Source: an uncultured Thiothrix sp. (lineage in GTDB: Bacteria; Pseudomonadota; Gammaproteobacteria; Thiotrichales; Thiotrichaceae). From it: a stretch of 64,000 nucleotides of DNA. The position numbers and the translations under genes were made by a program. The notes below the pieces were generated by a model. It did not search any database. It saw only the letters and a list, made by a program, of their open reading frames with translations, and had not been told where the DNA came from. The stretch spans positions 25,176 through 89,175 of the forward strand of contig CAZCJE010000005.1 in assembly GCA_964498805.1 (NCBI GenBank), in the 5' to 3' direction. Shown here in pieces: positions 1-17,789 of this stretch (positions are counted from its first letter, which is position 1; each line of letters starts with the position of its first letter).

Positions 1-800
1 TCGACTTCCTGCAATAAAATACCGAATTCATCACCCCCTAAACGCGCCAGCACATCTCTTTTGGCATCAATTTCATTTTTAAGAATTTGGGCAATACGCT
101 TGATAAGTTCATCGCCAGCACTATGCCCCATGGTGTCATTCACCACTTTGAACTGATCCATACCAATCAGGCAAAACGAATGCTTGACGCCGTGCTGACG
201 TACCTGATCAATCGCTACTTTTAGGCGCACTTCAAAACCTTTGCGATTTAAAAGTGAGGTGTGTGGATCATGCAGTTCCAGATATTCAAGACGCACTTGC
301 AAAGCTTGCAATTCAGTCTGATCACGCAATAGCAACAGATAATAAAACTGGTTGGAATTATCTACATACTGTACTGGCTGCACAGTATAGTTAACAGGTA
401 ATTCGTTTAGATGAGGGGTATTCAATAAAGCCCTTTGCACACTAGAACGATCACTGCTTTTAGCTTTATCCAGCCAAGGCAATGGATTTTGCATCACTGT
501 ATCTAGCAGGGAGAATAAATCGGTATAAGGCCTACCGCGTGCTGTGCGCATTTTATATTTGAGAATCTTTTCAGCGGTAGGATTGATAAAATCAATCCTA
601 CCTTGACTATCCACCAAAACAGCAGCTTCCTGAACATCAGCCAAGGCAGAAACCAACATATTCTGTTGTACTAACCGTAACTGTTGCTGGGATTTTTGCT
701 TAAAATAGTAGAAAAATACCGCTAAAGCCGTCAGCAATGCGCCTGCTAACAGACTAATCTGTTCTGTGGTAGAAAACGCATGATCAAGAAGATTCACCAC
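1..800 (-). CDS. Membrane-anchored PAS + GGDEF diguanylate cyclase-type protein, truncated at the left window edge (absent from the ORF track)
   Basis: Manual minus-strand translation from GTG at 800: TM segment (ISLLAGALLTALAVFFYYF), PAS-like VLVDSQGRIDFINPTAEKIL, then DQFKVVNDTMGHSAGDELI and VLARLGGDEFGILL. No stop before base 1. Start could be 800 or 803. Confidence 0.88.
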   Translation of the reverse strand, partial: MVNLLDHAFSTTEQISLLAGALLTALAVFFYYFKQKSQQQLRLVQQNMLVSALADVQEAAVLVDSQGRIDFINPTAEKILKYKMRTARGRPYTDLFSLLDTVMQNPLPWLDKAKSSDRSSVQRALLNTPHLNELPVNYTVQPVQYVDNSNQFYYLLLLRDQTELQALQVRLEYLELHDPHTSLLNRKGFEVRLKVAIDQVRQHGVKHSFCLIGMDQFKVVNDTMGHSAGDELIKRIAQILKNEIDAKRDVLARLGGDEFGILLQEV

Positions 801-938
801 CAAAGCCTCGGACACCTTTTATATTTATTAGATAAGCTGTCAAGTTACGGTGTGCATAATAGGGCATCGTTACCATTACTGTATAGTTTTAACGAGTAAC
901 GGTTAGGATACAGGGTCTAACTGAGGGTCATGCACAAG

Positions 939-971
939 AAATCAACTCTGCTTGATTAGCAGAGTTGATTT
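939..971 (-). terminator. Probable intrinsic terminator of the rpsP-rimM-trmD-rplS operon
   Basis: Perfect 13-bp inverted repeat AAATCAACTCTGC-N7-GCAGAGTTGATTT about 80 nt downstream of the rplS stop, followed by TTTCTT on the minus strand. Confidence 0.65.
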
Positions 972-1049
972 ATAGACTTACTCACGATGTGCTTAAACCA
1001 ACTATCCAACCAAGAGGGAGCTGGCTTAGCAAACGTGAAAGAAAAAAGC

Positions 1050-1394
1050 TTATACTTTTTCCTTGATACGAGCCGCTTTACCCGTGCGGCCACGCAGATA
1101 GTACAGCTTGGCACGACGGACATCACCGCTACGTTTAACTTCAATACTAGCGATGCTGTTGCTGTAAGTCTGGAACACACGCTCCACACCTTCGCCGTAA
1201 GAGATTTTGCGAACAGTGAAAGCAGAATGCAAACCACGATTACGCTTGGCAATAACTACCCCTTCGTAAGCCTGTTGGCGTTCTTTGTCACCTTCTTTAA
1301 CACGTACCTGAACTACAACAGTATCCCCTGGGTTAAAGTTAGGGATAGTTTTGGCCATCTGCTCTTGTTCAAGCTGTTGAATAATCGCGTTCAT
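1050..1394 (-). CDS. rplS: 50S ribosomal protein L19
   Basis: [30 protein letters not shown]...[20 protein letters not shown]; operon position. Confidence 0.98.
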
Positions 1395-1405
1395 ACATAA
1401 TTCCT

Positions 1406-2161
1406 CTACTGAAGCGGGTCGCTTCTTTCAAACTCGTTTATATACTCGTTGAGCAACACACGTTCGCTCTTGGTCAGTTGCCGGTTTTGCAACAGCTCGG
1501 GCCTGCGCTGCCATGTTCTGCCTAAAGCCTGCTTTTTACGCCAGCGGGCAATTTCCGCATGATTACCACTTTTAAGAACCGGTGGAATGCTTAATTCTTC
1601 CAACTCTTCGGGCCGTGTATAATGCGGACAATCCAATAATCCTTCATAAAAGGAGTCTTGGGCTGCAGACTCATGATGGCCAAGGGCTCCCGGTTGCTGG
1701 CGGGTAATGGCATCTATCAGTACCATGGCACCTAATTCGCCGCCACTTAAGACGTAATCACCAATGGAGCACTCTAAATCAACTTCCAATTCGATGACAC
1801 GCTCATCAATGCCTTCATAGCGACCGCACAACAGGATTAACTCGCTCTCTACAGCCAGCTGCTTGACCAATGGCTGATTGAGTGGTTTACCTTGTGGACT
1901 CAGATAGATGACTTTACCGGTATTAACTTGCCGCACAGAACGGATAGCTTTTAACAAGCAATCGGCTTTCATTACCATGCCTGGTCCACCGCCATAAGGC
2001 CGGTCATCGACTGTCCGATGGACATCTGTGGCATAATCACGTGGATTCCAGCAATGCAGAGAAATCAGTCCCCGTTCTGCTGCTCTACCCGTGATACCAC
2101 TTTCAATGACAGCACCCACGAGTTCAGGGAACAGGGTCACGACATCAAAACGCAGGCTCAT
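1406..2161 (-). CDS. trmD: tRNA (guanine-N1)-methyltransferase
   Basis: [48 protein letters not shown] motifs. Confidence 0.98.
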
Positions 2162-2163
2162 GG

Positions 2164-2670
2164 CTAAAAATCAGGATCCCAGTTGACGATAATCTGCCCA
2201 TTAGCTAGATCAACGCTAACAATTACATCGTCCATAATCCAAGGTATTAGGCGTTCACGCTCACCCTGCACCACCATCACATCATTAGAACCGGTTTCAA
2301 ACAAAGACTGTACCCGTCCACACCGGAATCCTAGAGTCGTGATGACTTCCATTTCCAGCAAATCAGCCCAGTAGTACTCATTCTGACGCAAAGGCTTCAA
2401 CTGGTGATGTTCAATGGCAATAGTAGCACCGACTAATGCTTGTGCCTGATCACGGTCATCAACACCGTCGAGCTGGGCAATAATGGCTTTACCCTGCACT
2501 TGACCATTTTTAACCGTATAAGTTTTCCATTGACCGCCAACTTGCAGCCACCACGGGCTATAACCCAGAATACTGTCACGTTGCTCGGTATGGGAAAAAA
2601 CCTTGACCCAGCCTTTCACTCCAAATACACCAGAAATTTTTCCCAATGTAAGTAGATTGGGCTGGGACAT
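2164..2670 (-). CDS. rimM: Ribosome maturation factor RimM
   Basis: [38 protein letters not shown]; between rpsP and trmD. Confidence 0.97.
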
Positions 2671-2674
2671 ATCT

Positions 2675-2929
2675 TTAGACCGCTGCAGTTTCAGCCGTTT
2701 CTTTCAACAGCTTGGCAACGCGATCAGTAGGCTGAGCGCCGCAGCCAATCCAGTAGGCAACGCGGTCTTGCTCAACGTGCAAACGTACTTCCTGACCACG
2801 AGCTACCGGGTTGAAGTAACCAATACGTTCAATATATCCACTATCACGTGGTTTACGCTTATCACTGACAACAATGTGATAAAAGGGGCGTTTTTTCGCA
2901 CCACCTCTAGCCAAACGGATATTAACCAT
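2675..2929 (-). CDS. rpsP: 30S ribosomal protein S16
   Basis: [41 protein letters not shown]. Confidence 0.98.
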
Positions 2930-2993
2930 TGCACAACCTTAAAATAATTTAGTTAACTTGGAGCAAAGTCACCAGCCCCAAAATAAACGCGCA

Positions 2994-3021
2994 ATTCTAC
3001 GTTAATTTCAGAAAAAGTGAA
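2994..3021 (-). promoter_or_regulatory. Candidate sigma70 promoter for the rpsP operon
   Basis: Minus strand TTCACT-N16-TAGAAT about 65 nt upstream of rpsP and just downstream of the terminator at 3046-3071. Consensus match only. Confidence 0.35.
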
Positions 3022-3045
3022 GTACTGATTAACCTGCTCGTCAAG

Positions 3046-3071
3046 AAAAAGACCTCCATTTTGGAGGTCTT
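3046..3071 (-). terminator. Intrinsic terminator downstream of the DUF1287 gene
   Basis: AAGACCTCCA-N3-TGGAGGTCTT stem followed by a T-run on the minus strand. Confidence 0.75.
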
Positions 3072-3119
3072 ACTGTCTTTAATGCGTTCGTTGCCCAAAT
3101 ATTAAGTTAACAAACCCAA

Positions 3120-3836
3120 CTAGTTGCTTCTAGAGGATAAGCCACCAGGCATATATCGGTAGTGCCCCGTGATAGGCATGGTAAACAGAACATCTTCCAG
3201 TTTTTCACCCTCTCCGATATTGTGCACAATCAAATGACGGTTAGGATCAACTGCTGATATGCGGTTTACCACTATACCGATATGCTCCTGATCTCCACCT
3301 AGACTCCATGTGACCAAATCGCCTGGACGATAATCACTTGGGTTATTAGTCACTGGCAGACGAGCCCCATGACGGGTAAAAAATGCTTTTAAGTTATGGA
3401 CCCGACGATGATCAATATTTGGGTCTGGTGCATCCAGTCCCCATTTCGCCAGATGCGGGTACGCATAAAAATTGTTAGCCATGTCTTCATGCACTAGACG
3501 CTGCAGATCTATGCCTAACTTACGGTAAGACCGAATAACCGTATCCGTACAAACCCCTATATTCGCAGGGACATCGCCATTGGGATATCCTATAGGCACA
3601 TAGCGACCATCATAGGTTACGCGATGGCGTAATCTATCCAAGGCGGCATAAGACAAACGATCAGGAACTGCTAAAGTCGTGCGTGCAGTACCGGAACGTT
3701 TCATAGGAGAAGATACGGCTTGCTCAGAAGATTTTTGCGTGGAACAGCCGGTGACCCCCAAAGCCAGAACACCCACAACCAAACCTGCTGACATACTCCA
3801 TTTAGCCATCACTGGCCTATTGAAAACACTACTCAT
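3120..3836 (-). CDS. DUF1287 (YijF-like) family lipoprotein, NlpC/P60-like Cys-His protein
   Basis: VTYDGRYVPIGYPNGDVPANIGVCTDTVIRSYR, DLQRLVHEDM, IDHRRVHNL, PGDLVTW, HIGIV, IVHNIG; lipobox-like VTGC. Start moved to 3836 (AGGAG upstream); the ORF track starts at 3869. Confidence 0.85.
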   Translation of the reverse strand: MSSVFNRPVMAKWSMSAGLVVGVLALGVTGCSTQKSSEQAVSSPMKRSGTARTTLAVPDRLSYAALDRLRHRVTYDGRYVPIGYPNGDVPANIGVCTDTVIRSYRKLGIDLQRLVHEDMANNFYAYPHLAKWGLDAPDPNIDHRRVHNLKAFFTRHGARLPVTNNPSDYRPGDLVTWSLGGDQEHIGIVVNRISAVDPNRHLIVHNIGEGEKLEDVLFTMPITGHYRYMPGGLSSRSN

Positions 3837-3904
3837 TGACCCGCTCCTGTTGCTACAACAGAACATCAATCACACTATTTACCTTTTTAATTAAGGCTTA
3901 TAAT

Positions 3905-3948
3905 AAAAAATTAAAATAATCGAGGCTGCCCAGAGGGTACAGCCCCGA
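3905..3948 (-). terminator. Probable intrinsic terminator downstream of the 415-aa exported protein
   Basis: TCGGGGCTG...CAGCCTCGA stem then TTATTTTAATTTTTT on the minus strand. Confidence 0.55.
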
Positions 3949-3962
3949 AAGAGTACCTACGC

Positions 3963-5210
3963 TTAATAAGTAGGGCAATCAGAGACGAACGGTTGCTTGA
4001 TAATTCCCCAACGATGAGCCAGTGGAGCATGCGGGTCTGATACTAAAGAACCAGCTTCTACATTTTGGCGCAATTCACGTAAAGACATATAGTAGTTAGG
4101 CTGCCCATCATCTACCAATGTCATTTGCACCTGACAGAAATCATTGAGGAATTTCATTTCTTGTGGCGGTGGTTCATCATTAGAGAATACGGCTTTAGCC
4201 CAACGTGCCGGTTGTGAACGTGGATCAAAGCGACCTACACGGTCCAAATGACGGCGAATGGAATCAAAGAACAAGTGTAAGCGTTTGTCGCGACCTGGGG
4301 TTGAGTGATCATTGTATTCTTTAGCGTTCATACAATGACGACCTTCATTGCGAATTTTTTGCAGATACCATAAAGCATCATACACGTACACACTGCGGTC
4401 ATTAGCGTACATACATAAGGCTAATAACAAACGTTGAGTTTTTTCATCCGGGCTTTCTACCCGTTTACCCAATTTTTTGGAAATAACATCAGTAAACGCC
4501 ACATAGTCTAATTGCACACCAGCAGCTACTTGGAACTGTTCTTCACTATAGCCTGGCTGTTGATTAGCAGGCTTCATAACATTTTGAGGTTGCTTGAAAC
4601 GTCTGTAGCCATCACCGAAACGTTTATCTTCTGGTACATAAAATGGGAAAGAAGGGGTACGTAACAAATAACGAGCCTGTTTAGGCGTGGTTGAGGCCAT
4701 AACCTCAGCAATACCAGTGTCGGTTACGTTTACAATCTGATAGGAATGCACACCCGGAGCCACATAAATATCACCCGGCTTAATGTCATTCAGCGCAATC
4801 GGGTAAGTATCATTACGTAAAGACTCACTACTGGTCATATCAGCAACATAATTCATGAACTGACGGACACGTTGTGGAGGTGAAAGGTTATCCCAAGTGG
4901 ACATAGAATTGCTGATAATTTTACCAGCTTTGTCACGATTATTGATAACAAAAGGTAAGCGGTTTTCGAAGGAGAAAACAAGGCGCATGGCATAAACTGC
5001 ATCGGCACAATCGTTTTCAAATTCGTAGTAAATAGGTTTGGAAGGATCCATGAAAATATCATCTTTCCAGTTAGTCCGTACCCAATCGCGGTAGCGTCCT
5101 TCCCAAACATCATCCCAAACATTCTCGTTAGGCCATACTTCTGCTGATGCAGTCATGGGGAGAATCACCATGCTCAACAGAAATAGCACCGAGGCAATCA
5201 ACTTTTTCAT
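3963..5210 (-). CDS. Exported hypothetical protein, putative papain/NlpC-P60-like cysteine hydrolase
   Basis: Sec signal peptide (MKKLIASVLFLLSMVILPMTASA). ENDCADAVY and IKPGDIYVAPGVHSYQIV resemble the Cys and PGD...His elements of NlpC/P60-like folds. The function is inference. Confidence 0.6.
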   Translation of the reverse strand: MKKLIASVLFLLSMVILPMTASAEVWPNENVWDDVWEGRYRDWVRTNWKDDIFMDPSKPIYYEFENDCADAVYAMRLVFSFENRLPFVINNRDKAGKIISNSMSTWDNLSPPQRVRQFMNYVADMTSSESLRNDTYPIALNDIKPGDIYVAPGVHSYQIVNVTDTGIAEVMASTTPKQARYLLRTPSFPFYVPEDKRFGDGYRRFKQPQNVMKPANQQPGYSEEQFQVAAGVQLDYVAFTDVISKKLGKRVESPDEKTQRLLLALCMYANDRSVYVYDALWYLQKIRNEGRHCMNAKEYNDHSTPGRDKRLHLFFDSIRRHLDRVGRFDPRSQPARWAKAVFSNDEPPPQEMKFLNDFCQVQMTLVDDGQPNYYMSLRELRQNVEAGSLVSDPHAPLAHRWGIIKQPFVSDCPTY

Positions 5211-5363
5211 GAAACTTGCACTTGATGTAGTTAAATTACTAGAAGAATATCTACTGGTAGCGAACTTGCCACCTACTGTGACTTCAGACCCGCCCTAGTC
5301 CGACACTCTGTCCATAAGTTTTCAAAGTCACCTAGAGTAGATTGCCTTATCGATAATTTCAAT

Positions 5364-5393
5364 AAAAAAAGCCCAGTCATGAATGATCTGGGC
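5364..5393 (-). terminator. Intrinsic terminator of lipoprotein A
   Basis: GCCCAGATCAT-TC-ATGACTGGGC then TTTTTTT on the minus strand. Confidence 0.8.
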
Positions 5394-5458
5394 ATAGATT
5401 CAATTTTTGAGAAAACTACCGTTTAAGTTTAACAGCATGAATTCTTATCAAAACTTGA

Positions 5459-5860
5459 TTATTTCTGCTGATATTGTTGCATTAACTGCTGAGATTTTTT
5501 ATCCATGCTCACAGGACCTTTATATTTGCCTTTGGCTTTGACCTGTGGAACAGCCGGACCTTTACCCTGACCGCCGCCGACATGAGGTACGCCACCTTTG
5601 CAACCATAAGCATGTTTATGGTTAGGATCTTTAGTTGGGTGGGTGTGGGTTACAGAGTTGGTGCAACCAGGAATAGCAGGATGTGAATGAGAGCCAGCGA
5701 CAGCATTAGTGCTAGGCGCTTTAGTATCAGTGGTTTTGGTTTCTGGCGCAGCTGTTTGTTGTTGGCTAGCACCTGCAGTTTGTTGCATTTGCTGACAGCC
5801 TGTTGCCAATAAACCAGCCACCAGCAGAGCTGCCAGTGTGAGTGGGGTTTTGATTTTCAT
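5459..5860 (-). CDS. Small lipoprotein, paralog A (His/Cys-rich linker, conserved VKAKGKYKGPV tail)
   Basis: Lipobox LLATGC after a signal peptide (MKIKTPLTLAALLVAG), Q-rich segment, HSHP...C...HTHP...HKH...C, tail VPQVKAKGKYKGPVSMDKKSQQLMQQYQQK. Start set at 5860 by analogy with the paralogs. Confidence 0.85.
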   Translation of the reverse strand: MKIKTPLTLAALLVAGLLATGCQQMQQTAGASQQQTAAPETKTTDTKAPSTNAVAGSHSHPAIPGCTNSVTHTHPTKDPNHKHAYGCKGGVPHVGGGQGKGPAVPQVKAKGKYKGPVSMDKKSQQLMQQYQQK

Positions 5861-6052
5861 CGTCTTGATCTCTTTCATTTGTTGTTTAAGGGAAGCATTC
5901 ACAAGGGTAGCTAAACAAACGTTTTTGAACGTCTTTTTACAGATCCCCTAATAAACTCAGTTAAGAATATACACAAAAAGCGGATCGATGTAACCAGTAT
6001 TAATCAAGAAGTCAAGATACTTTTATAAAACAAGATTGTTCTTTCTATCCAT

Positions 6053-6086
6053 AAAAAAACCCCTATCTAATTAAGATAAGGGTTTT
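6053..6086 (-). terminator. Intrinsic terminator of lipoprotein B
   Basis: AAAACCCTTATCT...AGATAGGGGTTTTTTT hairpin plus T-run on the minus strand. Confidence 0.75.
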
Positions 6087-6103
6087 GCCATGATCAAATC
6101 AGA

Positions 6104-6445
6104 TTAGCGCTGATATTGCTGCATTACATCTTTAGATGACTGATCAATCTCGACCGGGCCTTTATAGTTGCCTTTGGCTTTAACCGGTGGAATTTTCACT
6201 GGCGGTGGTGGAGGTGGACGTTTAACAGGCGGACGAGCTACTGGTGGTGGCGCAGGTGGCTGTGGAGTAACAGGAGCCGGTACTACAGGCTTAGGCTGTT
6301 CGCAAGGTGGACAAGCTTGCTGTTGAGAAGTTTGTTGACTGCCAGTCACTTGCTGGCTGCCTGCTGACTGTTGTTGACTACAACCTGCTGTGGACAAGCC
6401 GATACATATTAACGTTCCAAGTATCAGTTTGGACTTTAATTCCAT
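6104..6445 (-). CDS. Small lipoprotein, paralog B (Pro-rich linker, conserved tail)
   Basis: Lipobox STAGC, SQQQ segment, CPPC and a poly-Pro linker, tail IPPVKAKGNYKGPVEIDQSSKDVMQQYQR. Start 6445 has GAGG upstream. Confidence 0.85.
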   Translation of the reverse strand: MELKSKLILGTLICIGLSTAGCSQQQSAGSQQVTGSQQTSQQQACPPCEQPKPVVPAPVTPQPPAPPPVARPPVKRPPPPPPVKIPPVKAKGNYKGPVEIDQSSKDVMQQYQR

Positions 6446-6591
6446 GGCATTAGCCTCGTTCATTGTCTTAAAGATTAGGAATATAGTTAAGTGCAGCCAA
6501 AGATTACTCGTCTCTTAGGGCTCACCCCTAAATATTTAGTACAAAATCTTCATAAAAACCGATTAGCGGGCTAGATTCGTTCTACTAGGTC

Positions 6592-6624
6592 AAAAAAAAG
6601 CCCTTAGCATAAGCTTAAGGGCTT
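6592..6624 (-). terminator. Intrinsic terminator of lipoprotein C
   Basis: AAGCCCTTAAG...CTAAGGGCTTTTTTTT on the minus strand. Confidence 0.8.
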
Positions 6625-6668
6625 GTTTGATTAATAAGCCCTCATTCAAAAGGGCTTGTCAATCAGAA

Positions 6669-6965
6669 TTAGCGCTGATAACGCTGCAGAGTTGCTTTGG
6701 AAGCTGGGTCCATAGTAACTGGGCCTTTGTATTTACCTTTGGCTTTAACCTGAGGTACTTGAGGCGCTGGTGCTACTGGACGACGTGGAGCTGGAGCTGG
6801 AGCAACTGGAGCTGGAGCAACTGGAGCTGGATTAGCAGCTGGAGTTTCAGCTACTTGCTGACCAGTAGTCTGCTGGCTACCAGCAGCTTGTTGTTGGCTA
6901 CAACCAGTGGCCAGCAAACCTGCCAGCAACAAGCTGGCTACAGCGAATTGAGATTTCATTTTCAT
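6669..6965 (-). CDS. Small lipoprotein, paralog C (Pro/Ala linker, conserved tail)
   Basis: Lipobox LLATGC, SQQQAAGSQQ, PAPVAPAPVAPAPAP, tail VPQVKAKGKYKGPVTMDPASKATLQRYQR. Confidence 0.87.
   Translation of the reverse strand: MKMKSQFAVASLLLAGLLATGCSQQQAAGSQQTTGQQVAETPAANPAPVAPAPVAPAPAPRRPVAPAPQVPQVKAKGKYKGPVTMDPASKATLQRYQR
6786..6830. repeat. Coding tandem repeat, 15-nt unit TGGAGCTGGAGCAAC (about 2.6 copies plus 6-nt subunits)
   Basis: Read directly at 6792-6806, 6807-6821 and partially 6822-6830; encodes the VAPAP repeats of lipoprotein C. Confidence 0.85.
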
Positions 6966-7191
6966 AGTTCAAACTCTCTCACGATTTAAGGAAAGGGAAT
7001 ACTTATCAGGACGGGCTGACACGGCCTAGATATTAAAATAAACTATATCCAGAAGTCGGCAAAATGCCCCACTCAGCCTTCTTCATAAATTTTCTGGACG
7101 TGCGCATCATACAACTAGATAAATCCACAGGCAAACGCCTCTCATCTTAAAAATGAAAGGTCGGCTAATTTTTCAGTAAAAAATACGTACA

Positions 7192-8574
7192 CTACCCTGG
7201 AAATCCACCCATCGGAGGAAAGCCACCACCCGGCGGAAGTTTACCTTTCAAATTACCCATCAGCTTACGTAAACCGCCCTTACTGAATTGCTTCATGGCC
7301 TTACTCATTTGCAGGTGTTGTTTTAACAAACGGTTGACATCCTGCACTTGTAGGCCACAACCGGCCGCAATACGCCGTTTGCGTGAAGCCTTAATAATGT
7401 CCGGATTACGTCTTTCTTCTAAGGTCATAGAATTGATAATGGCAATCATGCGCCGAATTTCTTTATCATTCGCTTGATCCTTAATATTCGCTGGCAAATT
7501 ACCTGCGCCTGGTAATTTATCCAATAAACCGGCAATCCCCCCCATTTTGAGCATTTGCTGCATTTGATCGCGCAAATCTTCAAAATCAAACCCTTTGCCC
7601 TTGTTGAGCTTCTTAGCCAGCTGTTGAGCTTTTTTATGGTCAACCTTGCGCTGAGCCTCTTCAATCAGACTGAGAACATCACCCATGCCTAAGATACGCG
7701 AAGCCATACGATCTGGATGGAACGGTTCCAGCGCATCCAGTTTTTCGCCAACACCAATGAATTTGATAGGCTTACCGGTGATATGCCGCACTGACAATGC
7801 CGCCCCACCACGCGCATCACCATCGGCTTTGGTTAAAACCACACCCGTCAACGGTAAAGCATCGCCAAAAGCCTTTGCGGTATTAGCTGCATCTTGCCCA
7901 GTCATGCTATCGACAACGAACAAGGTTTCGATTGGCTTCACCGCTGCATGAATAGCCTGAATTTCGGCCATCATCTCAGCATCAACGTGTAAGCGACCTG
8001 CCGTATCGATAATCAACACATCGATATATTTGCGTTTAGCCTGATCTACTGCTGCTTTGGCAATATCAACTGGCTTTTGCGAGGTTTCACTTGCAAAGAA
8101 AATCGCCTCAGTTTGCCCCGCAATAGTTTCCAACTGCTTAATAGCTGCTGGACGATAAATGTCACAACTGGCAACCATCACGGTTTTATTCTGACGTTCT
8201 TTCAGAAAACGGGTCAGTTTACCAACCGTGGTGGTTTTCCCCGCCCCTTGCAAACCGGCCATCAGAATCACAGCGGGGGGTTGTGCATTCAAAGCTAGAC
8301 TTTCATTAGCCTGCCCCATGATCTGCACAAGTTCGTCATTGACCACCTTGATCAGCGCCTGACCTGGACTTAAGCTTTCCAGAACTTCCTGGCCAACTGC
8401 CCGTTCACGTACCCGGTTGGTGAATTCCCTGACAACAGGCAAGGCTACATCAGCTTCTAGTAAAGCCATGCGCACATCACGCAAAGTATCCTTAATATTG
8501 TCATCAGTCAGACGTGCCTGACCACGCAGTTTTTTTACCGTCTGGGATAGACGTTCACTTAAATTCTCAAACAT
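7192..8574 (-). CDS. ffh: Signal recognition particle protein Ffh
   Basis: MFENLSERL start (8574), GLQGAGKTTT, DTAGR, TKADGDARGGAALS, Met-rich M domain. Confidence 0.98.
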   Translation of the reverse strand: MFENLSERLSQTVKKLRGQARLTDDNIKDTLRDVRMALLEADVALPVVREFTNRVRERAVGQEVLESLSPGQALIKVVNDELVQIMGQANESLALNAQPPAVILMAGLQGAGKTTTVGKLTRFLKERQNKTVMVASCDIYRPAAIKQLETIAGQTEAIFFASETSQKPVDIAKAAVDQAKRKYIDVLIIDTAGRLHVDAEMMAEIQAIHAAVKPIETLFVVDSMTGQDAANTAKAFGDALPLTGVVLTKADGDARGGAALSVRHITGKPIKFIGVGEKLDALEPFHPDRMASRILGMGDVLSLIEEAQRKVDHKKAQQLAKKLNKGKGFDFEDLRDQMQQMLKMGGIAGLLDKLPGAGNLPANIKDQANDKEIRRMIAIINSMTLEERRNPDIIKASRKRRIAAGCGLQVQDVNRLLKQHLQMSKAMKQFSKGGLRKLMGNLKGKLPPGGGFPPMGGFPG

Positions 8575-8695
8575 GCTTGACTTCTTTCTAGTCCAATTCG
8601 AGCACAAGTTGCTATGATAGCATTAAAGTAAAAACGAATGCGTTCCCGTAAAGGGGCAGTTTAACCACCTGAGTATCAACACGAACGCTGCTTCA

Positions 8696-9505
8696 ATGAC
8701 AATAATGATTAATCTGCTTGCTGTATTGGCATGGCTGGCCACTTGGTTATTAATTGGCCGACGCTTGCGCGAGCGCTTGCAGGGGAAAGTCTCCTTGCAC
8801 AGACACTTACTGATTGCCTTATGGTTGTTTGCTATTGCTCTGCATGGCGCAACCATTGTCGATCATTTAAACAGCTCAGTGGGCATCTTTATTAATTTTG
8901 CCTTAGCCTGTTCGGTTGTTATGTGGCTATGCAGTGCTTTGTTATTTATTACCATGCTCAATCGGCCATTGGAAACTTTAGGGTTATTCGTAGTACCGTT
9001 TACCTTAATAGCCATGTTGCTACCCTTGCTAGATACCAGTCAAACCTCCGCCATTAATCTGAGCACTGGTTTGGGTGTACATATCTTTACATCCTTACTG
9101 GCTTATAGCATATTGACTCTAGCAAGCTTACAAGCATTGTTACTGGCATGGCAAAACCAGCATTTGCATAATCATAATCCTGGTGGCCTGATTCGAACCC
9201 TGCCGCCGTTGCTGGATATGGAAGCTCTCCTGTTCAAACTGATTCTATTAGGTATCATTTTGTTATCATTGGGCTTACTGAGTGGTGGACTGTATGTTGA
9301 TAATTTATTCAGCCAACATTTGGTGCACAAAACTATTCTTTCCATTGTAGCTTGGTTTGTATTCGTAACGCTGTTAATTGGCCATTGGCGCTATGGTTGG
9401 CGTGGACGCATTGCCATCCGCTGGACTCTTAGCGGCTTTTTCATTTTGATGCTAGCCTTTTTTGGCAGCAAGTTTGTGTTGGAATTCCTAGTAAAACCTT
9501 CTTAA
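8696..9505 (+). CDS. Cytochrome c assembly (CcsA/YpjD-like) inner membrane protein
   Basis: Eight hydrophobic segments, LGVHIFTSLLAYS, HKTILS, GHWRYGWRGR; divergent from ffh as for ypjD. Confidence 0.85.
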   Translation: MTIMINLLAVLAWLATWLLIGRRLRERLQGKVSLHRHLLIALWLFAIALHGATIVDHLNSSVGIFINFALACSVVMWLCSALLFITMLNRPLETLGLFVVPFTLIAMLLPLLDTSQTSAINLSTGLGVHIFTSLLAYSILTLASLQALLLAWQNQHLHNHNPGGLIRTLPPLLDMEALLFKLILLGIILLSLGLLSGGLYVDNLFSQHLVHKTILSIVAWFVFVTLLIGHWRYGWRGRIAIRWTLSGFFILMLAFFGSKFVLEFLVKPS

Positions 9506-9521
9506 CTCCGATAATGACACT

Positions 9522-10883
9522 ATGAGCAAAACCAGATTGCAGTACTACTGTACTGCGTGCGGTAGTTTGCACTCCAAATGGAGTGGGCAATGTAGTGATT
9601 GCGGTGCTTGGAATACGCTCGAAGAAAGCATTAGTGTGCCTGCGAGCAAGGCTCCGGCCACACGCTCAGGTAGTTATGCGGGTGAAGCGATTGCCATTCG
9701 CTCCTTGCATGAAGTGAGCCTAAGTGAAGACCCGCGTATTCCTACCGATCAACCTGAACTGGATCGCGTCCTCGGTGGTGGTCTGGTAGCCGGTTCCGTG
9801 GTACTGATAGGCGGCGACCCAGGAATTGGTAAATCGACTATTCTGTTACAGACCCTGACGGAACTCACTAATCTGAATAGTCTTTACGTGACCGGTGAAG
9901 AATCATTACAACAAGTCGGCCTGCGGGCTAAACGTTTGGGATTACCCACTGACCGATTGCGTTTGCTGACAGAAACGTGTGTGGAAAATATCCTGACCCT
10001 AAGTGCTCAGGAAAAGCCTCACATTATGGTGATTGACTCCATTCAAACTATTTTCACTGAAACATTGCAGTCAGCGCCTGGTTCAGTCAGCCAAATACGT
10101 GAATCAGCAGCCAAATTGGTGCGTTTTGCCAAGCAAACGCAGACCGTCTTATTTATTGTTGGTCATGTTACCAAAGAGGGAACCCTAGCAGGACCTAGGG
10201 TGTTAGAGCATATGGTTGATACGGTGCTCTATTTTGAAGGTGACCCTGGTGGCCGTTATCGTATTTTACGCGCAGTAAAAAACCGTTTTGGCGCAGTGAA
10301 TGAGCTTGGCGTGTTTGCCATGACTGAACAAGGACTGAAGGGAGTCAGTAATCCCTCGGCAATTTTTCTCTCTCGACATGATGAACCCGTGTCAGGAAGT
10401 GTTATCATGGTAACACGTGAAGGAACCCGACCCTTAATGGTGGAAGTCCAAGCGCTGGTAGACCAAAGCCATGGTAGTGTGCCGCGTCGGGTTACGTTAG
10501 GGCTGGAACAGAATCGTTTGGCTATGTTGCTAGCGGTCATGCACCGGCACGGTGGAATTTCAATGTTTGACCAAGATGTATTCATAAATGTGGTCGGTGG
10601 TGTTAAGATTTCAGAAACCGCCGCTGATTTACCATTATTACTGGCGGCACTATCCAGTTTTCGCAATCATCCTTTACCTGCTGATCTGGTGGTTTTTGGT
10701 GAGGTTGGGCTAGCAGGCGAGATTCGCCCGGTACCAAACGGAGAGGAAAGGCTGCGGGAAGCTGCCAAACATGGTTTTCGGCAAGCCATTGTACCCAAAG
10801 GCAACAAACCCCGGCAGCCAATCGAAGGCATGAAGGTGGTTGCTGTGACGAGATTGGAAAAAGCCATTGAAATGATGATGTAG
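9522..10883 (+). CDS. radA: DNA repair protein RadA/Sms
   Basis: CTACG...WSGQCSDCGAWN zinc finger, GGDPGIGKST, KNRFG, Lon-like C-terminal domain. Confidence 0.98.
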   Translation: MSKTRLQYYCTACGSLHSKWSGQCSDCGAWNTLEESISVPASKAPATRSGSYAGEAIAIRSLHEVSLSEDPRIPTDQPELDRVLGGGLVAGSVVLIGGDPGIGKSTILLQTLTELTNLNSLYVTGEESLQQVGLRAKRLGLPTDRLRLLTETCVENILTLSAQEKPHIMVIDSIQTIFTETLQSAPGSVSQIRESAAKLVRFAKQTQTVLFIVGHVTKEGTLAGPRVLEHMVDTVLYFEGDPGGRYRILRAVKNRFGAVNELGVFAMTEQGLKGVSNPSAIFLSRHDEPVSGSVIMVTREGTRPLMVEVQALVDQSHGSVPRRVTLGLEQNRLAMLLAVMHRHGGISMFDQDVFINVVGGVKISETAADLPLLLAALSSFRNHPLPADLVVFGEVGLAGEIRPVPNGEERLREAAKHGFRQAIVPKGNKPRQPIEGMKVVAVTRLEKAIEMMM

Positions 10884-11083
10884 AACTACCACATTTGCCG
10901 TAACGTTGTTGACTCCAAGCAACAGATATAATAATTTTATTAATCAGTTCGGGTCGCAATTTTACGTAACAAATACGGGTTTCCGGGTGGCGTTGAGGGT
11001 TCATAATTGCTGGCATTCCCTCTCCAGTTTGAAAGAATTTTTATTAATTACTCTCACCCATAATACGACGGGGAGTATGTGTC

Positions 11084-12703
11084 TTGTCTTTCTCAGAATT
11101 AGGTTTAAATCCAGATTTCGCAGCGAAAATTCAGGCTGCGGGTTACGAGAATCCGACTGAACTGCAAAAGCAGTTAATTCCTTTAATGACAGCTGCTAAA
11201 AGTGTCATTGTCTGGACACAATCGGCTTCTGGTAAAACCGGGGCGTTTTTGATACCTGCGATTAATTATATTCTTAGCAATCCGCTGGAAGATCATCGGC
11301 ATGCACGCATTTTGATTTTGACATCTCGGCGTGATCGTGTTAACCAAATTAACTATACCATCAAACGCTTATTAGGCGATGATCAGCAGTTGCGTTCAGG
11401 TTTTATCGTCAGTGGCCGACCTTATCAACCGCAAATGCGTTTATTACGGCGTCCTCTGGATTTGATGATTGCTACCCCTGGGCGTTTAAATGACTTGGTT
11501 GACAATAACAAGGCTGATTTTTCCAAATTGGAAATGCTGATTATTGATGACCTTAGCGCCATTTATCATAAAGGTTTACATGGGCTGGTTAATAAAATTT
11601 TAAGTGAGCGTACAACGCCTTGCCCGACGATTACTTTTGTTCGTCAGGAAGAAGAAATCGCCACTTATGCGCGCGCTATTTTCGCCGGTGCTCAGGAATT
11701 GGAAGTGGAAGATGATCGCAATCCACTATTGCAAATTCCACAGGTTGTGCATTTAGCCGATGATTACACGCATAAAATTGCCTTAATGGATCATTTACTA
11801 GATGAGTTTTCCGGTGAACCAACCAGCATTTTCACTACTAATACCAAAACGGCAAAAGCATTAGCAGAAAGCCTTGCTAATCATGGTCATAGTGCTGAAG
11901 TCTTTACAGATCTGTCAGAAGAAGAACGCACTGATCGTAGTACTTGTCCGATTCTGATTTATGCTGACCAAGATGGTTTGAAACCGGTCATGCAACCGGA
12001 AGAACATGTCATTAACTTCGAATTGCCAATCAAGGTAGAAGATTACGAAGCGCGTTTGCAAGGTATTCAAGCGGATACTCGTGAAGAAGCCGTCATTATT
12101 ATTGTTCTGCCACGCGAGCGCGAAAATCTCAAACGTGTGGAAGATTTCCTTGGCGATTCCATTGAACAATGTACCCTGCCCGGCTTAGCCCCGTTACATC
12201 ACACCTCCGGTTTTACTTTATCGGTGCGCTCACCGCGTAATAAAGGTGAACAAGGTCAACAGCGCAAAGGTGGTAATAATCAGGGCCAGAACAAGGGTCG
12301 GCATGGTGGCCAGACCGGACGCAATGCTAACCCTGGTAATAGTGCCAATAGCTCGCAATCACGTAACAATGGTCACCGTGGCCATAGTGGTGGGCAGCAA
12401 CACTCCCAAGCACCCGCTCAAGGTCAGCATCGTCAGGATGACAAATCAACAGATGCACAACGGCAGCAGCGCAAAGGCCCTTATGGACGCCTCAATGGGG
12501 GTGCGCAACGCAAACGCAGTGATGGCGGCAATTACAGTTCACCCTCAAGTAATATGTCACGACGTGATACGGGTGGTTCTTATGAAATCGGTAGCTGGGA
12601 AAAGCAGCAGGATTACTCCAGTGCTCCCGCCGCAGATAAAGGTCAAGGTGACAAAAAAGTTGTTATCCGTTACAAAGAAAAGCGTCGTATTTTGAGCAAA
12701 TAA
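11084..12703 (+). CDS. DEAD-box (RhlE-like) helicase homolog with degenerate motifs II, III, V, VI and a long low-complexity tail
   Basis: FSELGL, Q-motif PTELQ, SGKTGAF and ATPGRL are retained; DEAD is replaced by DDLS and HRIGRTGR by EARLQGIQ. TTG start. Confidence 0.8.
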   Translation: MSFSELGLNPDFAAKIQAAGYENPTELQKQLIPLMTAAKSVIVWTQSASGKTGAFLIPAINYILSNPLEDHRHARILILTSRRDRVNQINYTIKRLLGDDQQLRSGFIVSGRPYQPQMRLLRRPLDLMIATPGRLNDLVDNNKADFSKLEMLIIDDLSAIYHKGLHGLVNKILSERTTPCPTITFVRQEEEIATYARAIFAGAQELEVEDDRNPLLQIPQVVHLADDYTHKIALMDHLLDEFSGEPTSIFTTNTKTAKALAESLANHGHSAEVFTDLSEEERTDRSTCPILIYADQDGLKPVMQPEEHVINFELPIKVEDYEARLQGIQADTREEAVIIIVLPRERENLKRVEDFLGDSIEQCTLPGLAPLHHTSGFTLSVRSPRNKGEQGQQRKGGNNQGQNKGRHGGQTGRNANPGNSANSSQSRNNGHRGHSGGQQHSQAPAQGQHRQDDKSTDAQRQQRKGPYGRLNGGAQRKRSDGGNYSSPSSNMSRRDTGGSYEIGSWEKQQDYSSAPAADKGQGDKKVVIRYKEKRRILSK

Positions 12704-15089: not shown

Positions 15090-17789
15090 TTAACTCAATC
15101 TACCGTGGCATTGTTTATATTTTTTGCCTGAGCCGCAAGGACAAGGGTCATTACGACCTACTTTGGCCCCTTCACGTTGATAAGTCTCATCGGCTGTCGC
15201 TTCAACCGCATCTTCAGGATCAGTCAGCGCACTATTGGCTTGCGGATGGCTGTATTCCATGTCTTGTGGCGGATGTTCTTCCAGTGTCTCCATTGTTTTT
15301 TGCGGTTCAGCTAACTGAATGCGCATCAAGAAGGCAATCACATCGTGTTTAATACGCTCAAGCAATTGCTCAAACATTTCAAACGCTTCACGCTTATATT
15401 CCTGTTTAGGATTTTTCTGTGCATAACCGCGTAAGCCTACGCTTTGACGCAGATAATCCATCGCAGCAAGGTGGTCTTTCCACTCAGTATCCAGCACATG
15501 CAACATAACATCGCGTTCTAAACGACGCATGTTAGGGGCAGCAATCAAGTTTTCTTTTTGCTGCAGGGCTGCTGCTACTTGTTCCTGTACACGATCCCGC
15601 AGATTTTCTTCATACAGGTTTTTCTCAGTAGATAACCACTGCTTAATAGGTAGATCCAAACCAAAATCGACATATAGCTGCTTGTACAGCCCATCCACAT
15701 TCCATTGTTCTTCCATACTACCCTGTGGAATATGCGCAGCAAACAGATTATCCACCACGTCTTCACGGATATTGGCAATCATGTCGCCGATATCATCCGC
15801 TTCCAACAAGTCATTGCGCTGGGCATAAATAACTTTACGCTGGTCATTGGCGACGTCATCGTATTCGAGCAAATGCTTACGAATGTCGTAGTTATGGGCT
15901 TCAACCTTACGTTGGGCATTTTCAATGGATTTAGAAACCAGACCGGCTTCAATGGCTTGTCCACGCTCCATACCCAGACGCTGCATCATGCTCTTAACGC
16001 GATCTGAGGCGAAAATACGCATGAGGTTATCTTCCAAAGACAGGAAGAAACGCGAAGAACCGGGGTCACCTTGACGGCCGGAACGACCACGCAGCTGGTT
16101 ATCAATACGGCGCGATTCATGCCGCTCTGTACCCAGAATATGCAAACCGCCAGATTGGACCACTGCATCATGGCGTTTCTGCCACAAAGCCCGGATTTTG
16201 GCAATAGCTTCAGGATCAGGATTAGGCAATTGGCGAATTTCTTCTTCCAAACTACCACCGAGCACAATGTCAGTACCACGACCGGCCATATTGGTCGCAA
16301 TTGTTACCGCACCGGGGCGACCTGCATTGGCAACAATATGCGCTTCGCGTTCGTGCTGCTTGGCATTGAGAACTTCATGCGGAATACGCAAAGCTTTAAG
16401 CTTTTCCGAGACCAATTCAGAGGTTTCAATCGAAGCAGTACCAACCAATACCGGGCGACCTTTAGCCACCTGCTCTTGGATTTCCTTGATAATAGCCTCG
16501 TATTTTTCCTCAGCAGTCAGGTAAACCAAGTCATTGGAATCAATACGAATCATTGGACGGTGAGTCGGAATAACCACCACTTCCAAACCATAAATCTGCT
16601 GTAATTCAAACGCTTCCGTGTCTGCTGTACCCGTCATACCGGACAGTTTGTTATACAAACGGAAGTAATTCTGGAAGGTAATCGAAGCCAGTGTCTGGTT
16701 TTCAGCCTGAATTTCTACTTCTTCCTTAGCCTCAATCGCCTGATGCAAACCTTCAGACCAGCGACGCCCTGGCATGGTACGCCCGGTGAATTCGTCGACA
16801 ATAATGATTTTGCCATCACGCACAATGTAATCCACATTGCGCTGGTACAGAGCGTGTGCCCGCAATGCCGCATTGAGGTGATGCAAAATACTAATGCTAA
16901 CCGTGTCATACAAACCCTGACCTTCAGGCAGAATACCGGCTTGTATTAATAACTGCTCAACCCGCTCCTGACCGTCTTCAGTCAAAAATACCTGACGTGC
17001 CTTTTCATCAACAGAATAATCACCGGGGCCGTCTTCCTGCTGTTGGCGAGTTAAGGTCGGGATAAGCTTATCGATAGAGATATAAAGCTGAGAGGCATCG
17101 TGACTTGGGCCAGAAATAATCAGCGGTGTTCTGGCCTCGTCAATCAGGATAGAGTCCACCTCGTCAACAATGGCGTAATTTAGAACACGCTGCACGCGCT
17201 CTTCTTTACGAAACGCCATATTGTCACGCAGGTAGTCAAAACCGAATTCGTTATTGGTACCGTAGGTAATATCCGCTGCATAGGCTTCGCGGCGTTGGTC
17301 TTGGTTCAAACCGTTGATAATGACGCCGGTAGTTAAACCTAAGAAACTATATAGCTTAGACATCTGACCGGCGTCACGTTGCGCTAGATAGTCATTGACG
17401 GTAATGACATGCATACCTTTACCGGGTAATGCATTCAGATAAGCTGCCAGCGTTGCCACCAAAGTCTTACCTTCACCGGTTTTCATTTCGGCGATTTTGC
17501 CATCATGCAACACCATACCGCCGATCAGCTGCACATCATAATGACGCAAACCGAGTACCCGCTGGCTTGCTTCGCGTACGACAGCGAAAGCTTCTGGCAA
17601 TAGGCTATCGAGTGTTTCACCCTTTTGCAGGCGGTCGCGGAATTCGGTAGTTTTAGCAGCCAACTGGGCATCCGATAAAGCCCGACACTGTTCTTCCAGA
17701 CTATTGATTTTTTTTACTATTTTGGAATAAGACTTGACCAGGCGGTCATTACGGCTGCCAAAAAGCTTTTTGGCGACAGAACCCAGCAT
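15090..17789 (-). CDS. secA: Preprotein translocase ATPase SecA
   Basis: [48 protein letters not shown] motif [19 protein letters not shown]. Start at 17789. Confidence 0.99.

Follow-up and report, generated by a model that had tools for sequence, protein, structure and literature searches.

Among described systems, those closest to the locus treated here are the lipoproteins Lpp, LpoA/LpoB and NlpI-MepS of Escherichia coli, the wall enzymes that bear a PG_binding_1 domain, e.g. AmiD and LdtD, and the papain-like cysteine hydrolases of the NlpC/P60 and CHAP types. The locus consists of five genes situated between ffh and rpsP in an uncultured Thiothrix sp., and was found in a 64,000-nucleotide (nt) stretch of DNA (assembly GCA_964498805.1, contig CAZCJE010000005.1, positions 25,176 to 89,175 of the forward strand); this whole stretch is termed the window. 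Three of the genes encode small lipoproteins (lipoA, lipoB and lipoC), one encodes a 415-amino acid (aa) Cys-His protein, and one encodes a lipoprotein of the DUF1287 family.

The lipoproteins of this locus are like the E. coli ones named above in that they are small or linker-rich, have no Asp at position +2, are apparently abundant, and lie beside candidate wall enzymes. They differ in having no sequence relationship to them, no coiled coil, and no UB2H or TPR partner logic. In AmiD and LdtD, PG_binding_1 is carried by a wall enzyme, whereas here a stand-alone remnant of the domain terminates a small lipoprotein. The window DUF1287 protein is an ordinary full-length family member apart from its lipobox and position. 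DUF1287 has been placed in the NlpC/P60-CHAP-amidase papain-like group with a Cys-His-His triad, and has no experimental function (PMC10318531). For DUF4846, a family discussed below, the same paper proposes a newly recognised papain-like domain that modifies the wall and is probably of the NlpC/P60 type (PMC10318531).

A literature search on DUF1287, DUF4846 and Thiothrix lipoproteins or peptidoglycan yielded this one relevant classification paper and no experimental work, and no published description of the lipoprotein tail, the His/Cys motif, the 415-aa family or the gene pairing was found. A first-pass annotation of this DNA had stated that no described system is known to have this composition. 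No paper on such a system was found, but the components are of known kinds, i.e. lipoproteins, PG_binding_1, papain-like wall hydrolases and DUF1287. The novelty lies in the truncated stand-alone tail, a His6Cys2 motif, the 415-aa family with its helical domain, and a fixed pairing in one bacterial family inside tight housekeeping junctions.

A two-gene core in three chromosomal contexts

The open reading frame (ORF) listing shows 4.26 kb between ffh and rpsP (positions 2930-7191), with five co-oriented genes on the minus strand, as had been noted earlier. The five genes, the motif in lipoC and the two flanking genes are as follows:

7192..8607, minus strand, ffh (signal recognition particle protein), ORF, upstream flank of the insert
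6669..6965, minus strand, lipoA, 98 aa; lipobox LLATG-C; Gln-rich, then Pro/Ala-rich spacer; tail VKAKGKYKGPVTMDPASKATLQRYQR
6104..6445 (ORF to 6463), minus strand, lipoB, ~113 aa; lipobox LSTAG-C; CPPC motif; Pro-rich spacer; tail VKAKGNYKGPVEIDQSSKDVMQQYQR
5459..5860 (ORF to 5902), minus strand, lipoC, 133 aa; lipobox LLATG-C; His6Cys2 motif; tail VKAKGKYKGPVSMDKKSQQLMQQYQQK
5600..5689, minus strand, His6Cys2 motif of lipoC, H-x-H-P-x2-P-x-C-x5-H-x-H-x6-H-x-H-x-Y-x-C, from the ortholog alignment
3963..5210, minus strand, 415-aa protein; Sec signal ending ASA-EV, no lipobox; AlphaFold2 model
3120..3836 (ORF to 3869), minus strand, DUF1287 lipoprotein, 238 aa; lipobox GVTG-C; PF06940
2675..2929, minus strand, rpsP, ORF, downstream flank of the insert, heading rpsP-rimM-trmD-rplS (1050-2929, all minus strand)

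In E. coli the ffh-rpsP gap is 136 bp, and ypjD is divergent and upstream of ffh. The window ffh has 65.8% DNA identity to E. coli ffh, in every one of 5426 genomes searched, and the order rpsP-rimM-trmD-rplS is the same in E. coli and in 37 related loci.

A scan of species-representative genomes yielded 80 loci, which were then compared by tblastn with the ten window proteins and by searching every ORF for the motifs. About 37 of these (Thiothrix, Thiolinea and Thiofilum) display the order ffh, 1-3 lipoproteins with the tail, the 415-aa gene, 0-3 further tail lipoproteins, DUF1287, and rpsP-rimM-trmD-rplS. Protein identities at the ffh-rpsP insert track those of the flanking housekeeping genes. 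The arrangement is common to three genera, thus the insertion is old. This synteny comparison bears out the earlier suggestion that these are lineage-specific envelope genes.

The genes occur elsewhere on the chromosome in other Thiotrichaceae. In 26 loci (Cocleimonas, Leucothrix and relatives), 1-2 tail lipoproteins and the 415-aa gene are found between atpC and glmU-glmS, and none of ffh, rpsP or DUF1287 is present within 10 kb of the pair. In another group (5-6 loci) the pair is found between metG and lptD-surA-pdxA, and DUF1287 is directly 3′ of pdxA, about 5 kb downstream of the pair (e.g. L059, positions 16211-16768; L066, 15999-16898; L070, 10950-11465). In E. coli this slot, in the lptD-surA-pdxA-rsmA operon, is occupied by rsmA. 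None of the atp/glm or metG/lptD genes is present in the window.

A His-rich lipoprotein gene is immediately 5′ of the 415-aa gene in nearly all loci. The two share a strand and lie ~200-250 bp apart, and this is so in three chromosomal contexts and ~70 loci. Because the pair is kept together in three junctions, the conserved unit is the lipoC-type lipoprotein plus the 415-aa gene. The locus is therefore a two-gene core with tandem paralogs and a lineage-specific associate (DUF1287), and not the one five-gene module of the first-pass annotation; outside the Thiothrix clade just the pair stays linked, in other junctions. The co-occurrence of the tail family that had been put forward as a check is found with the 415-aa gene in all three contexts, but fails for DUF1287 in Cocleimonas and Leucothrix. 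DUF1287 adjoins the pair in Thiothrix, Thiolinea and Thiofilum only, and joined the neighbourhood in that lineage. The tail lipoproteins vary in number per locus from 1 to 5 and are variable in position.

A contig labelled Aquificaceae bacterium MAG 28 (metagenome-assembled genome; L048, QOAQ01000056.1) shows atpC, the lipoprotein, the 415-aa gene, glmU and glmS, with 58% identity to the window protein. It is probably mis-binned. Extra copies of the 415-aa gene with 66-67% identity to the window protein are found in a Thiolinea MAG (L034, L037) and in a Thiotrichaceae MAG (L036), without a tail lipoprotein and without the ffh/rpsP context.

The lipoproteins and the candidate wall enzymes

The tail is the sole strongly conserved part of lipoA and lipoB. 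Its consensus in the window proteins is VKAKGxYKGPVxMDxxSxxxMQQYQ[KR]. The first-pass annotation had pointed to a shared tail, and this is real and can be seen even at the DNA level, as a family of 84-nt repeats (termed D1) with 65-76% identity:

5467..5550, minus strand, D1 copy in lipoC
6109-6192, minus strand, D1 copy in lipoB
6674-6757, minus strand, D1 copy in lipoA

Rather than being an unknown element, the tail derives from PG_binding_1. In the atpC-glmU and metG-lptD groups the C-terminus reads ...VDVxALQRKLKAKGYYKGPIDGVVGPGTRSALKRFMNR. The positional orthologs in Cocleimonas and Leucothrix match Pfam PG_binding_1 (PF01471) with 27-36 bits against a gathering score of 23, aligning with helix 1, the GYY-G-x-DG loop and the helix 2 core. 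The match runs from profile position 4 to position 37 (of 57), at which point the proteins stop, before helix 3. An hhalign comparison of the window tails with the PG_binding_1-positive tails gives a 95.8% probability (E = 8e-9). In addition, phmmer searches from lipoA and lipoC reach PF01471-bearing proteins directly, and lipoC aligns with such proteins end to end. Compared with the Cocleimonas tail, helix 1 of the Thiothrix tail is gone and a Pro-rich spacer is found instead, and the loop is shorter by 2-5 residues. The three-helix domain is thus incomplete: helix 3 is absent from the tails, and helix 1 also from those of Thiothrix. To judge from these alignments, the tail is a shrunken remnant of PG_binding_1 from its first two helices, with ~26 residues in Thiothrix.

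lipoA and lipoB are tandem paralogs that retain the signal peptide, spacer and tail only. Homologs of lipoA (n = 32) are all small Thiothrix-type proteins, and the weakest ones bear PF01471 (phmmer). The likely start of lipoB is the ATG at 6445 (MELKS...), with GAGG upstream. A C-P-P-C motif (6302-6313, minus strand) opens the Pro-rich spacer of lipoB, and lipoB-type orthologs have extra cysteines as well, with three non-lipobox cysteines each, for example, at L001 8785-9096, L002 8764-9075 and L012 8822-9133. The CPPC and the extra cysteines may represent a redox or disulfide feature.

It should be noted that public automated names clash (proteins P0287, P0293, P0312, P0318, P0322 and P0019). 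Those for the small lipoproteins are ‘PBP1b-binding lipoprotein LpoB’, ‘murein-binding lipoprotein Lpp’ and ‘transposase-like protein’, and one 415-aa homolog is named ‘sugar phosphate isomerase/epimerase’. These names are without family-match support in Pfam and NCBIfam scans.

lipoC, the lipoprotein of the conserved pair, has a likely start at 5860 (MKIKTPL...), which matches its orthologs. Its His6Cys2 motif is absent from lipoA and lipoB. Eleven positions, H58, H60, P61, P64, C66, H72, H74, H81, H83, Y85 and C87, are invariant in 14/14 lipoC orthologs from Thiothrix to Cocleimonas, and the region has no Pfam match. Since six His and two Cys are packed within 30 residues, the motif is probably a metal site. 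In some Cocleimonas and Leucothrix lipoproteins the His/Cys module is repeated (up to 27 His), with a variable number of modules; examples from Cocleimonas, with 21-27 His and 6-10 Cys, are L063 1789-2778, L043 8220-9008 and L060 8437-9267.

The 415-aa protein displays an N-terminal Cys-His domain (residues ~24-215) and an all-helical C-terminal domain (~224-415, about 190 residues). An exhaustive profile search yielded 958 clusters (50% identity clusters) at E ≤1e-3 and 237 at E ≤1e-30, and most members are full length, 390-430 aa. Word-index homologs number 256, and the named ones are all Thiotrichaceae (Thiothrix, Thiolinea, Thiofilum); one named member of the wider family comes from a Bdellovibrionales MAG. 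A diverse alignment was made with 70 members showing 24-46% identity. C68, G146, H155, G166, S303, P393, R400 and G402 are invariant in 70/70, D67 is present in 69/70, and four further cysteines are nearly invariant. The codon of Cys68 lies at 5007-5009 and that of His155 at 4746-4748 (minus strand).

An AlphaFold2 model built from the 70 diverse members has a predicted local distance difference test score (pLDDT) of 94.9 and a predicted template modelling score (pTM) of 0.91. It replaced an earlier model from 13 close homologs (pLDDT 78), whose Foldseek matches were meaningless. In the 70-member model Cys68 opens a helix (68-82), His155 opens a strand (155-162), and residues 224-400 are helical. 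The papain-like arrangement, a Cys at a helix N-terminus with a His on a later strand, thus agrees with the invariant pair (70/70) and the model. The likeness to NlpC/P60, CHAP and DUF4846 lies in the Cys at the helix start, the Gly and then His at a strand start ~87 residues on, and the export of the protein. The 415-aa protein differs from NlpC/P60 and CHAP in being without a match at the Pfam threshold and without a conserved third residue, and in having the extra 190-residue helical domain with its four conserved cysteines.

The top Foldseek match in both PDB and BFVD, non-significant, is a CHAP domain. The list of weak matches includes 4fdy, 3gt2, 4hpe and 5udm, and there are several NlpC/P60 or peptidoglycan hydrolases among them. 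Sub-threshold matches to DUF4846 are found in 13/13 close members over the PGD...H stretch (best E = 4e-6). Sequence searches of PDB with the 13- and 70-member profiles and with DUF1287 gave nothing below E = 0.2. Taken together, the conserved residues and the predicted fold suggest that the 415-aa protein probably has a CHAP/NlpC-P60-like cysteine hydrolase core; its overall architecture is without a characterised relative, and the helical C-terminal domain is novel. On one contig from an NCBI MAG (L084), a distant 415-aa family member (3545-4789) is convergent to a true DUF4846 gene (4966-5847, 293 aa). This adjacency may point to a functional or evolutionary relationship between the two families.

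The DUF1287 lipoprotein matches PF06940 with E = 1.5e-65 and 220 bits (cutoff 25) over profile positions 3-163 of 163, and also displays weak CHAP and NlpC/P60 matches (Pfam). C107 (3549-3551), H196, H216 and G183-D184 are invariant in 39/39 orthologs (numbered from the start of the 249-aa ORF, position 3869), and 35 of the 39 have a lipobox. Homology between this protein and the N-terminal domain of the 415-aa protein was considered and rejected. The hhalign result is non-significant (P 0.047) with the PGD...H stretch alone aligned, so the two cannot be called homologous. Thus, of the two papain-like enzymes proposed in the first-pass annotation, DUF1287 stands (PF06940, invariant triad), and the 415-aa assignment is probable only, with a sub-threshold DUF4846 match and non-significant Foldseek matches.

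Export, transcription and sequence setting

Four of the five proteins have lipoboxes (LLATG-C, LSTAG-C, LLATG-C and GVTG-C) and the fifth, the 415-aa protein, has a Sec signal. The lipobox was defined by a pattern check only, i.e. a signal peptide ending [LVI..][ASTG][GAS]-C; by this pattern, 102/127 tail ORFs have one. These sequence features agree with the earlier proposal that all five proteins are exported. Probable start codons were reassigned for three genes, lipoB, lipoC and that of the DUF1287 protein. In all four lipoproteins the +2 position, next to the lipobox Cys, is occupied by S or Q and not by D. In E. coli, lipoproteins without Asp at +2 are sorted to the outer membrane. The absence of Asp at this position therefore suggests, by the E. 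coli rule, that the four lipoproteins are sorted to the outer membrane.

RNA folding shows a stem-loop and U-run after each of the five genes (-12.8 to -34.9 kcal/mol, z -2.9 to -7.0 vs shuffles), which confirms that each gene has its own terminator as first described. A simple pattern scan detected just one of these minus-strand terminators. The individual signals, together with the gene next to ffh, are:

8696-9505, plus strand, ypjD-like gene, adjoining ffh as in E. coli
7106..7134, minus strand, promoter-like site for lipoA (TTGCCT, 17 nt, TATGAT), pattern scan
6598..6665, minus strand, two successive terminator hairpins after lipoA; -34.9 kcal/mol, z -7.0; U8 after the second stem
~6050-6085, minus strand, terminator after lipoB; -20.6 kcal/mol
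~3915-3948, minus strand, hairpin after the 415-aa gene; -18.3 kcal/mol
3049..3071, minus strand, terminator after DUF1287; ten-pair stem and U-run; -18.7 kcal/mol, z -5.1
2994..3021, minus strand, promoter-like site upstream of rpsP, pattern scan only

The 5′ leader of lipoA is apparently ~130 nt (6966-7098, minus strand) and has no Rfam family match.

DNA near-identical to the window is present in wastewater and sludge metagenomes. Contigs from eight sludge/wastewater metatranscriptomes (five study codes) were placed on positions 1000-9000. lipoA RNA contigs cover 6671-7091 and end repeatedly at 7082-7091, just downstream of the promoter-like site; lipoB contigs cover 6080-6517 (depth up to 65) and lipoC contigs 5401-5945 (depth up to 30). 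Contig depth, a crude measure taken from assembled contigs and not from reads, is 3-65 for the lipoprotein genes and 0-8 for ffh and the ribosomal genes. For the 415-aa and DUF1287 genes it is 0 in most cases, although a single run has scattered short contigs that reach 9.5. The ends of lipoprotein contigs recur beside the predicted promoters and terminators, and the pattern is consistent across the eight runs. These data are consistent with monocistronic lipoprotein mRNAs that outnumber their neighbours, and with low-level expression of the enzyme genes.

NCBIfam scans of all five proteins gave matches at noise level only. On the opposite strand, 6627-6989 (plus) is a 120-aa ORF antisense to lipoA that is W/S-rich with SWS/NWS repeats and mirrors the repetitive Pro/Ala codons. 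This ORF and another at 6168-6326 (plus) are almost certainly not genes.

Proposed function and alternatives

The explanation preferred here, tentatively, is that the ffh-rpsP spacer holds independently transcribed envelope genes around a two-gene module found in all of the Thiotrichaceae, whose lipoproteins tether to the wall and one of which partners a cysteine hydrolase. The lipoproteins would hang from the outer membrane, with disordered Gln/Pro/Ala spacers that span the periplasm, and their tails would touch peptidoglycan (or the enzyme), forming non-covalent tethers or spacers. Lipoproteins of the lipoC type would position or regulate the 415-aa cysteine hydrolase at the wall, and the hydrolase would cut peptide or amide bonds in remodelling of the filament wall. 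The DUF1287 protein would be an independent lipoprotein amidase or endopeptidase that acts on the wall separately.

Several results weigh against this explanation. With respect to the enzyme, no third catalytic residue is conserved (D147 is present in 24/70 members and E169 is variable), the DUF4846 score of 22 bits falls short of the gathering score (37), with a weak match in just 10/70 diverse members, and Foldseek of the 415-aa model gives no significant match (best E = 0.73 with PDB 2k3a and 0.23 in BFVD). With respect to the tail, the three window lipoproteins themselves have no PF01471 match in Pfam; with helix 1 and helix 3 missing, the tails may no longer bind the wall, or may bind a protein instead. 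Distant 415-aa family members, from outside the Thiotrichaceae, on five contigs show no common neighbours and no tail lipoprotein, so that in general the enzyme has no need of the lipoprotein. The separate promoters and terminators and the unequal RNA argue against tight stoichiometric coupling, and contig depth is itself a poor measure of expression.

Some of the same observations would fit the absence of any functional system. The ffh-rpsP, atpC-glmU and metG-lptD junctions may be tolerant spots that collect unrelated, independently expressed envelope genes, the lipoproteins being abundant structural or tethering proteins and the enzymes independent. This has in its favour the terminator of each gene and the separate RNA contigs at very different depth, the lack of linkage of DUF1287 in Cocleimonas and Leucothrix, the variable number and placement of the tail lipoproteins, and the distant 415-aa members that stand alone. 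It is nevertheless somewhat unlikely, since strict adjacency of a His/Cys lipoprotein directly 5′ of the 415-aa gene in three contexts and ~70 loci is difficult to account for unless linkage is selected, and in two of these contexts no more than ~5 kb separates DUF1287 from the pair. The strict adjacency can also be read as a sign that the lipoC type inhibits, gates or chaperones the 415-aa enzyme, with the tail or the metal site covering or protecting the catalytic Cys in the oxidising periplasm. Comparable roles are played by the immunity proteins that accompany secreted papain-like amidases, and by protease prodomains with a PG_binding_1-like fold, e.g. in matrix metalloproteinases. The tail is too reduced for a full PG_binding_1 fold, the metal-type motif adjoins it, and the invariant Cys suggests that the enzyme depends on cysteine. 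Such a role is quite unlikely all the same: lipoA and lipoB keep the tail without the His/Cys motif and are the more abundant RNAs, and a general structural role fits this better.

A covalent system of the Braun's lipoprotein kind, in which the 415-aa enzyme or DUF1287 would attach or detach lipoprotein C-termini at peptidoglycan, is improbable. In E. coli, LdtA-C and DpaA attach and detach Lpp. The window lipoproteins are small, abundant, adjoin cysteine enzymes, and end in a basic residue (..YQR, ..YQR and ..YQQK); one lipoC homolog also has the automated name ‘murein-binding lipoprotein Lpp’ (JGI), to which little weight is given. The C-terminal residue is not conserved, however, being K, R, H, Q, Y, N or E in orthologs, and an Lpp-like C-terminal lysine was dismissed for this reason. 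The spacers are Pro/Gln/Ala-rich and not coiled coil, no Lpp family match is found (Pfam, NCBIfam), and neither enzyme has the YkuD fold, which does this reaction in E. coli. That the 4.26 kb is a recently acquired island or mobile element is hardly conceivable. The insert does separate two genes that lie close together in E. coli, but, as the first-pass annotation observed, no integrase or transposase family matches any of the five genes (Pfam and NCBIfam scans); in addition, tRNA and Rfam scans of positions 1-12000 found nothing, a repeat search found no repeats bracketing the insert, and its GC (guanine plus cytosine) content of 0.40-0.49 is similar to that of the flanks. The arrangement is kept across three genera with identities tracking those of the housekeeping flanks, and this cross-genus conservation effectively refutes a mobile element.

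A bolder version of the preferred explanation, which is unlikely, is that the locus represents an undescribed envelope device of the Thiotrichaceae, in which highly expressed outer-membrane lipoproteins with a minimal PG_binding_1 remnant, of two helices or less, would dock on the wall or directly on the 415-aa protein, and the His6Cys2 metal module of the partner lipoprotein would gate a new family of periplasmic cysteine hydrolases. If true, it would be a functional counterpart of Lpp, LpoB or NlpI assembled from unrelated components, with a possible role in forming filaments or gonidia.

Current concepts are not overturned by these findings; known themes, i.e. lipoprotein tethers or adaptors and papain-like wall hydrolases, are extended. 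The 415-aa protein provides an entry to a family of ~958 clusters that has an invariant Cys-His pair and a fold predicted with confidence, and is represented neither in Pfam nor by a solved structure. The His6Cys2 motif, compact, without variation and undescribed, is probably metal-binding. The connection between outer membrane and wall in Gram-negative bacteria without Braun's lipoprotein is still being resolved lineage by lineage, and these lipoproteins, apparently abundant as RNA and with a tail derived from a wall-binding domain, are candidates for that link in the filamentous sulfur bacteria that cause sludge bulking.

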